Part shown: positions 6,681-13,793 of the stretch, in pieces | Layout: the number at the start of each line of letters is the position of its first letter | How positions within the stretch are numbered: the first letter of the stretch is position 1 | IMG/VR virus record: IMGVR_UViG_2778261344_000012 | Strand: one strand, 5' to 3' | DNA: 14,862 bases | Source: a virus | Lineage: Duplodnaviria; Heunggongvirae; Uroviricota; Caudoviricetes | Notes under the pieces: model-generated | The model's input: the letters and a program-made list of their open reading frames with translations, nothing else | Databases searched by the model: none | What the model was told of the DNA's origin: nothing | Translations under genes and position numbers: made by a program

Positions 6681-7622
6681 ATGAGCACTAAATTAACCGG
6701 CTATGTATGGGATGGTTGCGCTGCATCAGGCATGAAATTATCCAGCGTGGCAATTATGGCCCGCCTGGCTGATTTCAGTAATGACGAAGGTGTGTGCTGG
6801 CCATCAATTGAAACTATTGCCCGTCAGATTGGCGCGGGGATGAGTACCGTCAGGACGGCTATCGCACGGCTGGAAGCAGAAGGCTGGTTAACGCGTAAGG
6901 CGCGTCGCCAGGGTAACCGCAATGCGTCGAATGTTTATCAGCTTAACGTTGCGAAGCTTCAGGCAGCGGCATTTTCTCAACTGTCAGATTCTGACCCGTC
7001 AAAATCTGACGCATCAAAATCTGACCCGTCAAAATTTGATGCGTCGAAATCTGGCAAAAAAGCGGGTTTTCACCCGTCAGAATCTGGCGGGGATCCGTCA
7101 GTAAAATCAAAACATGATCCGTCAGATAAAAAACCTTCTCGTCCGGACGCTTCGCAACCGGACACGCAGACGGATGAACAGGATTTTTTAACTCGCCATC
7201 CTGATGCGGTTGTATTCAGCCCTAAAAAGCGCCAGTGGGGAACGCAGGATGATTTGACCTGCGCACAGTGGCTCTGGAAAAAAATCATCGCCCTGTACGA
7301 GCAAGCCGCCGAATGTGACGGCGAGGTGGTTCGTCCCAAAGAACCGAACTGGACAGCCTGGGCAAACGAAATTCGCCTGATGTGTGTGCAGGATGGTCGT
7401 ACTCACAAACAAATCTGCGAGATGTACAGCCGCGTCAGCCGCGATCCGTTCTGGTGCCGTAACGTGCTCAGCCCGTCGAAGTTGCGGGAAAAATGGGATG
7501 AGCTTTCCCTGCGCTTATCACCGTCCGTCAGCACGTACACCGAAAAACGCGAAGACCCGTACTTCAAATCCAGTTACGACAACGTGGACTACAGCCAGAT
7601 CCCGGCAGGATTCAGGGGGTGA
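6681..7622 (+). CDS. Replication initiator, lambda O-like (N-terminal HTH, internal iteron-encoded linker), 313 aa
   Basis: N-terminal helix-turn-helix (WPSIETIARQIGAGMSTVRTAIARLEAEGWL); central repetitive SDSDPSKSDASKSDPSKFDASKSGKK segment encoded by tandem 15-bp DNA repeats; gene order after cro/cII. Confidence 0.7.
   Translation: MSTKLTGYVWDGCAASGMKLSSVAIMARLADFSNDEGVCWPSIETIARQIGAGMSTVRTAIARLEAEGWLTRKARRQGNRNASNVYQLNVAKLQAAAFSQLSDSDPSKSDASKSDPSKFDASKSGKKAGFHPSESGGDPSVKSKHDPSDKKPSRPDASQPDTQTDEQDFLTRHPDAVVFSPKKRQWGTQDDLTCAQWLWKKIIALYEQAAECDGEVVRPKEPNWTAWANEIRLMCVQDGRTHKQICEMYSRVSRDPFWCRNVLSPSKLREKWDELSLRLSPSVSTYTEKREDPYFKSSYDNVDYSQIPAGFRG
6984..7133. repeat. Putative origin of replication: iterons inside the O-like gene
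   Basis: Five tandem 15-bp units of the form TCAAAATCTGAC-NNN (6984..7058), then three spaced CCGTCAGA/TAAAA-type copies (7073..7133), followed by A/T-rich tracts. This is a lambda-ori-like architecture. Confidence 0.6.
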
Positions 7623-11318: not shown

Positions 11319-11702
11319 ATGTGTGATATTCAGATGGTTCTTGAACGTTGGGGAGCGTGGGCGGCTAATAATCATGAAGATGTGACCTGGTCGTCCATTG
11401 CCGCCGGTTTTAAGGGATTAATTCCTTCAAAAGTAAAATCTCGCCCGCAATGTTGTGACGATGACGCGATGATCATTTGCGGGTGCATGGCCCGTCTGAA
11501 AAAGAACAACAGCGATTTGCACGATTTATTAGTAGATTATTATGTAGTCGGTATGACATTCATGTCACTGGCAGGTAAGCATTGCTGCTCTGATGGTTAT
11601 ATCGGGAAAAGGTTACAGAAGGCTGAGGGCATAATTGAAGGGATGTTAATGGCATTAGATATCCGGTTAGAGATGGATATCGTTGTTAATAACTCTAATT
11701 AA
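11319..11702 (+). CDS. Q: Late-gene antiterminator Q (Phage_antitermQ family), 127 aa
   Basis: Sequence [26 protein letters not shown]... with Cys-rich [17 protein letters not shown] matches my recollection of Q proteins from E. coli lambdoid and Stx phages. ATG 11319 is preceded by GGAGAAAG, and a hairpin-rich leader follows. Confidence 0.7.
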
Positions 11703-11724
11703 TATGCCAATTGTTTACTGAAAG

Positions 11725-11754
11725 TTATTAAAAATGGGGCGTTGCAACGCCCCC
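11725..11754 (-). terminator. Rho-independent terminator (minus strand) ending the porin/sRNA transcript
   Basis: Perfect palindrome GGGGCGTTGCAACGCCCC (11736..11753) followed on the minus strand by ATTTTTAATAA. Confidence 0.5.
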
Positions 11755-11890
11755 AAAAATAAAGGGTAATATATAACAGAAGGTTTATATAGTTAGAAGC
11801 AAGGTTGTGCTCCTAAAGGAAGTGGCTTGAGGGAGCCACTTATATGTTGGGGAGGCAACGCCTCCCGCAACATATCTTTTTCGTAATCAG
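11755..11890 (-). ncRNA. Candidate IpeX-like small RNA in the porin 3' region
   Basis: About 165 nt between the porin stop (11892) and the minus-strand terminator at 11725..11754, containing the stable hairpin AAGTGGCT/AGCCACTT (11820..11841). Position and length match my recollection of IpeX downstream of nmpC in DLP12; sequence identity not verified. Confidence 0.3.
11842..11883 (+). terminator. Plus-strand Rho-independent terminator (tR'-like) downstream of Q
   Basis: ATATGTTG-GGGAGGC-AAC-GCCTCCC-(G)-CAACATAT, a roughly 15-bp stem, followed by CTTTTTCG; lies about 140-180 nt downstream of the Q stop, as expected for a Q-antiterminated late leader. Confidence 0.55.
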
Positions 11891-11891
11891 A

Positions 11892-12989
11892 TTAGAACTG
11901 GTAAACCAGACCTACAGCAACGATGTCATCAGTGCTTACACCGAGTGCTTTAGTGAAGTCATTTTTGTCAAGCAGGTTGATTTTGTAATCAACGAAAGTA
12001 GACATATTTTTGTTGAAGTAATAGGTTGCACCTACATCAACATATTTGACTAAGTCCTGATCGCCCCATACTCCAAGATCCTTACCTTTAGATTGCAGGT
12101 AAGCAACGGACGGACGCAGACCGAAATCGAACTGATATTGTGCAACAGCTTCGAAGTTTTGAGCTTTATTAGCAACGAAGTGATCAGCAAATACAGTCAT
12201 ATTCTGGGTTTCAGAATAGGTAGTGGCCAGGTAAATGTTGTTAGCGTCATATTTCAGACCTGCGGCCCAAACTTCTGCATTTTTACCGGAAGCAAATACT
12301 TCAGGAAGAACTTTCCCTGCATTAACTTGAGTGTCGGTACGATCAGATTTCGCATAAGTTGCACCGATACCGAATCCTTCGTATTCATAGGTAGCAGAGA
12401 AACCGAAGCCATCACCGTTACCTTCGGTGTAGTTATCGAAATCGCTACGATCGTTTTTGCCTTGGTACTGAGCAGCAAAGTTCAGACCATCAACCAGACC
12501 AAAGAAGTCGTTGTTACGATAGGTTGCAACACCAGTGGTGCGACCAGTCATGAACACATCTGTTTGGGTCCAGGTATCGCCACCGAATTCTGGCAGAACG
12601 TCAGTCCACGCACCGATGTCGTATGCTACACCGTAGTTACGGCCGTAATCGATTGAGCCGTAGTCACCGAATTTCAGGCCTGCAAATGCAAGACGGGTTT
12701 TGTCTTTGGAGGAACCTTGAGATTCAGCGCGGTTGCCTTTGAATTCATATTCCCACTGACCGAAACCAGTCAGCTGATCGTTGATTTGGGTTTCGCCTTT
12801 GAAGCCCAGACGAACATAAGTAGTATCACCATCATCTGCATCGTTAGAGGAAAAGTAGTGCTTGGCATTAACTTTCCCGTACAGATCCAGCTTGTTACTG
12901 TCTTTATTATAAATTTCAGCTGCCTGAGCAGACATCGCCATCAGTACTGATGCAGCTACAGCAGAAATTGCCACTGTTAATTTTTTCAT
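11892..12989 (-). CDS. nmpC: OmpC/NmpC-family general porin (phage lysogenic-conversion porin), 365 aa, with signal peptide
   Basis: Signal peptide [23 protein letters not shown] followed by [16 protein letters not shown], and C-terminal ...VGLVYQF with terminal Phe, are classic OmpC-family features. Located between Q and the lysis genes on the opposite strand, as nmpC is in DLP12. Confidence 0.9.
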
Positions 12990-13480
12990 CGTGAGCCCTT
13001 TTTTTTGAACTATTATTAAAAAATGATGTCACTGCGCGATAAATATTCATCTAATCAATGTGATTATTTCAAGATGTAAGTTTTAGTTTCTCATTTAATT
13101 TGTGAAGTAGATCTCTATTTTTATCTGAACTTTTTCTATCGAAACCTATTTATGGCTCTTATTTGAACAAAAATAAATCTATTAGCTAATTTATATTAAT
13201 GGCTGTTATTTATGGTGGTTCTATAATTCGTCTGTTTAATTTAAACCGGCTAAAAATAACACTGAAAATTATTTATTGGTTATTTGTTGAGGTTTTCTTA
13301 TGTATTTGTGGTGATGTTTTGAACACTCGGTAGCATTCTCATAAATATCATTCAGTGGTTTACGTACGTAAAAAATTGGTTATGCTGTTAAGAGTGGTTA
13401 CTTCGTCACACAGCTTAAACCCGCCGTCGAGCTGGTTTTTCCATTTTTTGAGTCTCGATATTAGCTGATAACTCAATACC
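12990..13480. promoter_or_regulatory. Long AT-rich upstream region of the porin gene (promoter and likely nucleoid-protein-bound regulatory region)
   Basis: About 500 bp of strongly AT-rich sequence with poly-A/T tracts and no credible ORF, immediately upstream of the porin start (12989). Confidence 0.4.
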
Positions 13481-13577
13481 TGAGTTATTCACTGACTCGG
13501 AGTCAGTTACGTTTCTGCTTTTTTGCGATACGTTGTATTCCCTCAATTTACACCCGCTTTGTCTGCGAGGTGGGGTT

Positions 13578-13793
13578 ATGAAATTCATGGATAAGTTAAC
13601 AACTGGAGTCGCCTATGGCACCTCAGCAGGTAGTGCCGGTTACTGGTTTTTACAGCTGCTCGATAAAGTCACTCCCTCACAGTGGGCAGCAATAGGTGTG
13701 CTGGGTAGCCTGGTATTTGGCCTGCTGACGTACCTGACAAACCTTTATTTCAAGATTAAAGAAGATAAGCGCAAGGCTGCGAGAGGTGAATAA
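13578..13793 (+). CDS. S: Class II pinholin (phage 21 S-like) with dual-start motif, 71 aa
   Basis: [71 protein letters not shown]: two transmembrane segments, charged C-terminus, and Met1/Met4 dual starts. RBS GAGGTGGGG precedes the ATG. Confidence 0.8.

Follow-up and report, generated by a model that had tools for sequence, protein, structure and literature searches.

Does late transcription in a lambdoid prophage have to run through a gene that points the other way? The question is raised by a stretch of 14,862 nucleotides (nt) of a tailed virus (Caudoviricetes; IMG/VR record IMGVR_UViG_2778261344_000012), hereafter the window, in which a porin gene, nmpC, lies between quuD, the gene of the late antiterminator Q, and an S21-type holin gene, on the strand opposite to both. 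A first-pass annotation of the window assumed that the late promoter, pR', abuts Q, and concluded that, on the way to the lysis genes, Q-antiterminated transcripts have to traverse the porin in antisense, converging with it. We found instead that the homologue of pR', its leader and its terminator sits past the porin, at 13359-13450, and that the porin occupies a cassette of 1.68 kb (about 11679-13358, 40% GC), whose edges were set there because homology stops after the LEMD codons of Q and resumes about 40 nt before the late start. The present analysis itself shows that the porin is intact and is NmpC, where pR' lies, and where the cassette begins and ends; what we say of regulation, expression and the exchange of surface porins draws on the literature on K-12, PA-2, LF82 and CFT073.

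The window is a lambdoid prophage that, over 2.5 kb, matches chromosomes of Escherichia coli O103:H2 and related Shiga toxin-producing E. coli (STEC) with 100% identity. The genes in the matching O103:H2 chromosome are labeled quuD, porin, essD, rrrD and rzpD. The Q-porin-S module is present as a whole in 36 sequenced phages. Since these include the complete phage genome PhiR29_1, where the module is 99.8% identical, the layout is compatible with lytic growth.

Position of the late promoter

The conserved core of QuuD ends at codon 120 (LEMD, nt 11678), and the last seven codons are specific to this cassette. Over these 120 amino acids (aa), QuuD is 77-80% identical to the Q proteins of 933W/H-19B-type Shiga toxin (Stx) phages, after which it diverges and ends about 17-20 aa sooner; the compared phages all diverge right after GAGATGGAT, the LEMD codons. 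The structure of Q21 (6P18) is a distant match (35 bits), too distant to transfer details of its binding site, and the 933W-type phages were therefore used instead. Of the spacer between porin and holin, only 13358-13440 matches the Stx phages, and it overlaps the 3' end of their Q, their annotated pR' and their terminator. For example, in Stx phages 06-3462 and Ss-VASD the features read "putative late promoter pR'" and "possible rho-independent terminator". Alignment to these phages gives a -35 element TTTACG (13359-13364), a 16-nt spacer and a -10 element TATGCT (13381-13386) in the window, and the -10, leader and terminator are conserved in seven phages with differing cargo. By this homology pR' lies 1.66 kb past the Q stop codon, beyond the porin rather than directly after Q, and late transcripts are predicted to begin about 185-190 nt before the holin start codon.

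We scanned IMG/VR with the leader motif, which occurs as a single copy in the window. The scan returned 120 loci (L091-L210); in 100 of these, the motif is preceded by a Q of this family. Measured from where the Q core ends, the motif lies 41-92 nt away in 24 of the 100 loci, all cargo-free, and 1692-1711 nt away in 35, all of which carry a porin on the minus strand relative to Q; for the remaining loci, the distance falls elsewhere in the range from 632 to 2479 nt. In a comparison of 66 distinct sequences, both the leader and the -10 pattern TAnnnT proved to be conserved. The leader contains an invariant block, TAAGAGTGGTTAC (13389-13401), and the conserved initial transcribed region runs TAAGAGTGGTTAC...CACACAGCTTAAA. 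Phage ev087, with the lipocalin Blc as cargo, had no leader motif within the 2.5 kb examined and could not be used for placing pR'.

A palindrome, TTTACGTACGTAAA (13359-13372), overlaps the -35 element of pR'. Its sequence varies among phages, yet it stays palindromic and tracks the Q subtype in six or more pairings. The form TTTACG(T/A)(A/T)CGTAAA goes with QuuD/933W-type Q, ACGCGTACGC with a Q type 45-48% identical, GCGGTCCGC with one 48-52% identical, and TGTGTTATAACA, TGTGGAATTCCA and ATTCGTTACGAAT with three further Q types. A change in step with the Q subtype is the behavior expected of a Q-binding element, and the palindrome is a probable one. The binding element of Q21 lies within -40 to -1 of pR' (bioRxiv 10.1101/651190).

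Published work on the K-12 prophage DLP12 bears on the same site. A reporter fragment for its lysis operon spans -121 to +650 (PMC7918800), which fits a start just upstream of essD, and earlier work, in the form in which PMC7918800 cites it, has the operon regulated by the DLP12 Q-like factor and RpoE. In the window, a consensus promoter scan found no plus-strand promoter-like site between Q and the porin, but the same scan missed both pR' and the porin promoter (PnmpC), because each fits 8 of 12 consensus positions, and the identification of both therefore relies on homology and literature.

With pR' beyond the porin, Q-modified transcripts need not cross it, contrary to what the first-pass annotation had supposed. 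The porin and the late operon are then divergent, and it is on Q and on the early transcript leaving Q that the porin converges.

The late leader carries an allele of its own. The first leader hairpin, with its T-run, spans 13417-13450 and is conserved with compensatory changes in the 118 loci surveyed (66 distinct sequences). At 13433, in the hairpin stem, the window has T where K-12, the 933W-type phages and most other phages have G, an allele shared by 16 of the 118 loci. The canonical stem is broken, and the hairpin folds at -6.2 kcal/mol, compared with -12 kcal/mol in the K-12 and 933W-type versions. The T allele may make expression of the lysis genes leakier. Further downstream, 13469-13527 may form a second terminator ahead of the holin.

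An intact nmpC

The porin gene encodes 365 aa with neither a frameshift nor an internal stop. Pfam Porin_1 (PF00267) covers it end to end, with residues 29-365 matching profile positions 1-337 of 337 (E 1.8e-156), and the NCBIfam model of the OmpC subfamily scores 527.8 bits against a cutoff of 484. The crystal structures of OmpC and OmpK36 align from residue 24 (AEIYNK, the mature N-terminus) through the final ...VYQF (E about 1e-135). From the alignment of these mature PDB chains, a Sec signal peptide cleavable before AEIYNK is predicted, with 23 residues encoded at 12921-12989, followed by the mature barrel (11895-12920) and the stop codon (11892-11894). The motif of the L3 constriction loop, PEFGGD, is present, and the C-terminus (...GLVYQF) ends in Phe, the aromatic residue of the beta-signal. 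From how closely the porin matches the solved structures of OmpC and OmpK36 along its whole length, a 16-stranded trimeric beta-barrel that would form a diffusion channel is predicted.

In K-12, nmpC is split by IS5B after codon 346; with the IS5 taken out, 362 of the 365 aa are identical to the window porin. Together with the uninterrupted reading frame, this identity makes the window gene an intact nmpC. The first-pass annotation was thus right on both counts: an intact OmpC-family porin moron, with signal peptide, full porin profile and C-terminal Phe, lies between Q and the lysis genes, and its counterpart in K-12 DLP12 is disrupted by an insertion sequence. Of 5,426 complete E. coli genomes, 2,465 (about 45%) contain similar DNA over at least 80% of nmpC, as do viable lambdoid phages.

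Comparing alleles of the cassette (L116, L170 and others), we observed that the porin coding region is the most divergent segment, with 85-88% nucleotide identity, and that the Q core, the 3' untranslated region (3'UTR) and the pR' leader are mostly 95-99% identical. Amino acid changes and indels cluster around residues 181-190, 219-233, 268-272 and 340-352, which probably fall in surface loops.

Regulatory DNA of the porin

The AT-rich stretch upstream of the porin covers 12990-13358 (369 bp) at 27.6% GC, compared with 48% for the whole window. From 13359 on, GC content is 42%, and the sequence there belongs to the promoter and leader of the late operon, not to the porin. A relaxed scan of the upstream region gave a ribosome-binding site at about 12996-13002, a candidate PnmpC with -35 TTGAAA at 13067-13072 and -10 at 13043-13048, and a predicted CRP-like site, TGTGAAGTAGATCTCT, at 13101-13116. 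The promoter-proximal 170 nt or so are almost identical to K-12, and identity drops to about 91% in the distal upstream DNA.

In K-12, PnmpC lies within -199 to -1 of the start codon, and its start site was mapped by 5' rapid amplification of cDNA ends (PMC11677980). Its annotated sites are for CRP (two), OmpR, IHF and MprA, and through its transcription the nested IS5 becomes the principal transposase source in K-12 (PMC11677980). Expression of nmpC is 6.3-fold lower in a cya mutant (PMC4512719), and its ribosome footprints are about 60-fold lower at pH 4.4 (PMC10746267). Similarly, NmpC is a moron of the LF82 prophage Perceval, transcribed 10-fold above the prophage background (PMC9928086), and the Perceval upstream region is 93% identical to that of the window porin. 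In CFT073, nmpC mRNA and protein are strongly favored at 37 °C over 23 °C (PMC12890032). In K-12, the spacer between nmpC and essD figures among 78 "promoter islands" and is listed with H-NS binding in every chromatin immunoprecipitation (ChIP) set compiled (PMC3661553).

These data bear on the reading of the upstream DNA in the first-pass annotation as about 500 bp of AT-rich, horizontally acquired sequence typical of an H-NS-silenced promoter. The AT-richness and the acquisition hold, but the length comes down to the 369 bp given above. H-NS binding is borne out for the K-12 homologue (PMC3661553), but silencing is not, as PnmpC is CRP-activated, has a mapped start and is expressed in K-12, LF82 and CFT073. 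Judged by the published data from these three strains, nmpC is not silent; most likely, its promoter has CRP as an activator and H-NS as a modulator, responds to temperature and pH, and is active in the lysogen independently of induction.

On the other side of the gene, the 3'UTR of about 165 nt folds at -62.4 kcal/mol (z = -7.9 against shuffled sequences) into three or four stable hairpins and shares 97.7% identity with K-12 DLP12. It is closed by an intrinsic terminator (stem 11736-11753, U-run to about 11727), the only strong one nearby, on the minus strand. Passages in three papers (PMC12197685, PMC5069750, PMC3333887) describe IpeX as a 167-nt RNA made from the phage porin transcript that represses ompC and ompF. 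Judged by its terminator, fold and identity to K-12, the window 3'UTR corresponds to IpeX. A search of the whole window at a permissive threshold returned no Rfam family covering the 3'UTR, and hence no covariance-model support for IpeX.

Relation to known porins and phages

The closest known arrangement is that of K-12 DLP12 (qsr'). Its NmpC is nearly identical, as described above, and place and orientation between quuD and essD, the 3'UTR and the promoter-proximal DNA are also alike. It differs in the IS5B insertion, the distal upstream DNA and the G at the position of 13433, and the early region of the window prophage, with its yfd/CPS-53-like genes, differs from that of DLP12.

Among chromosomal genes, the OmpD of Salmonella and the OmpD-like porins of Citrobacter and Enterobacter share 75-79% protein identity with the window porin over the mature barrel, which places them nearer to it than OmpC, OmpF or PhoE of E. 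coli. These relatives are chromosomal, not phage-borne, and their DNA homology ends at the signal-peptide boundary (12923) and the stop codon (11891). The promoter, the 5'UTR, the signal-peptide DNA and the 3'UTR are not shared with the chromosomal OmpD-like loci (L012-L040). Because only the mature coding sequence is homologous, the regulatory DNA and the IpeX tail belong to the phage cassette alone, which also rules out a wholesale transfer of the cassette from a chromosomal ompD locus. The window porin aligns over its full length with OmpC and OmpK36 (2XE2, 1OSM, 2J1N) and has their PEFGGD and VYQF motifs, but it is shorter or different at about residues 181-190, 219-233 and 268-272. Regulation also differs according to the literature, as nmpC is CRP-dependent, in contrast to the classical OmpR-activated pattern of ompC.

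The 933W/H-19B-type Stx phages resemble the window in Q and in the homologous -35 palindrome, -10, leader and terminator. In those phages, however, the end of Q and pR' overlap, and tRNAs and stx, the cargo, lie downstream of pR' and are Q-dependent, whereas the 1.68-kb cargo of the window lies upstream of pR', faces backward and would be Q-independent; the C-terminal tail of the window Q is also different and shorter.

Cargo between Q and pR'

The gap between Q and pR' holds other genes elsewhere, among them those of the surveyed loci that are neither cargo-free nor carry the porin. They include the Kiwa genes KwaA/KwaB (PADLOC, E 2e-150) and a PDC-S20 KAP NTPase (E 1e-177), as well as an HNH/PDC-M68A protein, an Abhydrolase_3 esterase, lipoproteins, the lipocalin Blc and a GIY-YIG nuclease. 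This cargo is mostly AT-rich and on the minus strand. Overall, the gap looks like a hotspot for morons and defense genes. A limited literature search for earlier descriptions of this slot as a hotspot returned only the P2/P4 hotspots. We tentatively propose, as a possibility that we consider somewhat doubtful, that the gap is a recurrent cargo slot with fixed edges and that the porin is a receptor-swap module for superinfection exclusion within a defense hotspot that is, as far as we found, undescribed.

Features of the window and additional observations

Table 1. Coordinates of the features around the porin cassette, with the evidence for each
Feature	Position	Strand	Evidence
quuD, late-gene antiterminator Q (Q21/933W family)	11319..11702	+	Pfam PF06530, E 1.5e-52
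Porin 3'UTR, IpeX small-RNA region (by similarity)	11727..11891	-	terminator scan, fold, 97.7% identity to K-12 DLP12
nmpC porin precursor, 365 aa	11892..12989	-	open reading frame, Pfam, NCBIfam, structure alignments, K-12 comparison
AT-rich porin regulatory region	12990..13358	-	composition, relaxed promoter and CRP scan, K-12 comparison
Late promoter pR' (by homology)	13359..13386	+	homology to pR' annotated in Stx phages, conservation, palindrome co-variation
Initial transcribed region and first terminator-like hairpin with T-run	13389..13450	+	alignments, 118-locus survey, folding
Further leader hairpins (13469-13487 and 13491-13507), then T-run (13519-13524)	13469..13527	+	weak prediction, -9.3 kcal/mol, z = -1.4
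S21-type holin, first late/lysis gene	13578..13793	+	Pfam PF04971, E 1.7e-35; annotated essD

Several further observations were made in the window. The holin gene has two start codons three codons apart, ATG 13578 and ATG 13587 (MKFMDK...); the phage 434B record lists antiholin S71 and holin S68. Antisense to the 3' end of the porin lies a plus-strand open reading frame of 69 aa (11844-12053), whose counterpart in phage 434B is a hypothetical protein with a ribosome-binding site; it is probably not a real gene. Farther away, six tandem TCAAAATCTGACCCG-like units spaced 15 nt apart occur at 6969-7091 on the plus strand, inside a replication-initiator-like open reading frame (6681-7622), and are probably origin iterons; an Rfam match to mir-5880 on this repeat stretch was discarded as spurious. 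A sub-threshold Rfam match to STnc100, a prophage-associated small RNA, covers the whole model at 3572-3795 on the minus strand (40.3 bits against a gathering score of 47, E 6e-6) and overlaps a hypothetical gene annotated as frameshifted in the matching genome.

Discussion

We consider it very probable that the cassette is a Q-independent lysogenic-conversion unit upstream of pR', one that would place NmpC in the outer membrane and lower OmpC and OmpF through IpeX. It would be a self-contained, backward-facing unit, with its own sigma-70 promoter in the 369-bp AT-rich region, the porin precursor, and an IpeX 3'UTR with a terminator. Q would act in trans on pR', so that late transcripts begin past the porin and run directly into the holin, and PnmpC, divergent from pR', would transcribe the porin independently in the lysogen. 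If the literature on K-12 and other strains carries over, this promoter would be activated by CRP, stronger at 37 °C than at 23 °C, repressed by acid, and located in H-NS-bound DNA. With NmpC inserted in the outer membrane and IpeX reducing OmpC and OmpF, the set of surface porins would be swapped, and phage-receptor availability and permeability would be altered. The first-pass annotation had likewise suggested that a phage-encoded porin can change both; this suggestion is supported, with the swap itself inferred from the K-12, PA-2, LF82 and CFT073 literature.

The arrangement can also be explained in other ways. One would place pR' just after Q, at 11703-11891, so that Q-modified polymerase would arrive at the lysis genes only after crossing about 1.1 kb of porin in antisense, head-on with porin transcription. 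Phages lambda, 21 and 82 and the Stx phages do have pR' next to Q, and the spacer between Q and the porin is rich in hairpins that could pass for a 6S-like leader. However, the spacer is itself the 3'UTR of the porin, a U-run closes its hairpins on the minus strand only, in E. albertii its association with the porin does not depend on Q, and the consensus scan found no plus-strand promoter-like site in it. In addition, the pR', leader and terminator homologue of the closest Q relatives (77-80%) sits at 13359-13450, and the 41-92 nt spacing of cargo-free loci, together with the co-variation of the palindrome, ties Q to the 13359 site. We regard a pR' adjoining Q as highly improbable here. Another explanation holds that the porin is intact yet cryptic, with H-NS on the AT-rich upstream DNA keeping the gene off in all normal conditions. 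The 27.6% GC of this DNA and the H-NS-bound K-12 promoter island speak for it, as does a report that nmpC is "quiescent" in E. coli B. Still, K-12 PnmpC has a mapped start and enough transcription to supply the IS5 transposase, nmpC mRNA and footprints are abundant enough to fall about 60-fold at pH 4.4 and 6-fold in a cya mutant, LF82 NmpC stands 10-fold above its prophage background, and the CFT073 protein is induced at 37 °C. A permanently silent porin thus appears unlikely.

A third explanation concerns the early operon rather than the late one. In lambda, N-modified pR transcripts read past Q. If antiterminated pR transcripts did the same here, they would cross the porin during lytic growth and shut off both porin and IpeX by transcriptional interference. 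The porin is convergent with Q, and a terminator scan found no convincing plus-strand intrinsic terminator within 11703-12989, although polymerase that is unmodified may pause or terminate at the stable hairpins (11736-11866). We consider such early antisense transcription possible, but less likely than its absence. It is also among the points that weigh against our preferred explanation, as early transcripts leaving Q encounter no detected plus-strand terminator ahead of the porin and might continue antisense through it during lytic growth. Other such points concern the promoters: the start site, the sigma-dependent pause and Q loading at pR' are inferred from homology and co-variation, the pR' labels in the Stx phage records are themselves marked "putative", and the PnmpC hexamers and the CRP-like site are predictions. 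By weakening the first leader terminator, T13433 may leave the lysis genes of this prophage only partly Q-dependent. Finally, in the matching O103:H2 chromosome (NZ_AP038976.1, 576146-604646) the integrase is broken by IS3-family elements and an IS66-family element cuts off the tail genes, damage that makes a complete lytic cycle in that host unlikely, so that the prophage is probably not inducible as a complete phage.

The porin itself is not new. That nmpC/lc encodes a porin of lambdoid prophages was recognized in the 1980s; in phage PA-2, whose receptor is OmpC, the porin gene is lc. The porin, its IS5-disrupted K-12 copy, the promoter, its regulators and IpeX are all published, and in these respects the finding is already known. 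For annotation, the consequence is that pR' should not be taken to abut Q in DLP12-type prophages. If the proposal of a recurrent slot is true, the subtype-specific palindromes at the -35 element would be a readable specificity code for the Q21/933W family. The presence of Kiwa and other defense candidates in the same gap could help in mining prophages for immune systems. As the porin lies outside the late operon, its expression would belong to lysogeny and be uncoupled from induction, unlike stx in the sister phages. In STEC O103:H2 and similar strains, the intact cassette of NmpC and IpeX plausibly contributes to antibiotic permeability and to phage susceptibility that depends on porins.

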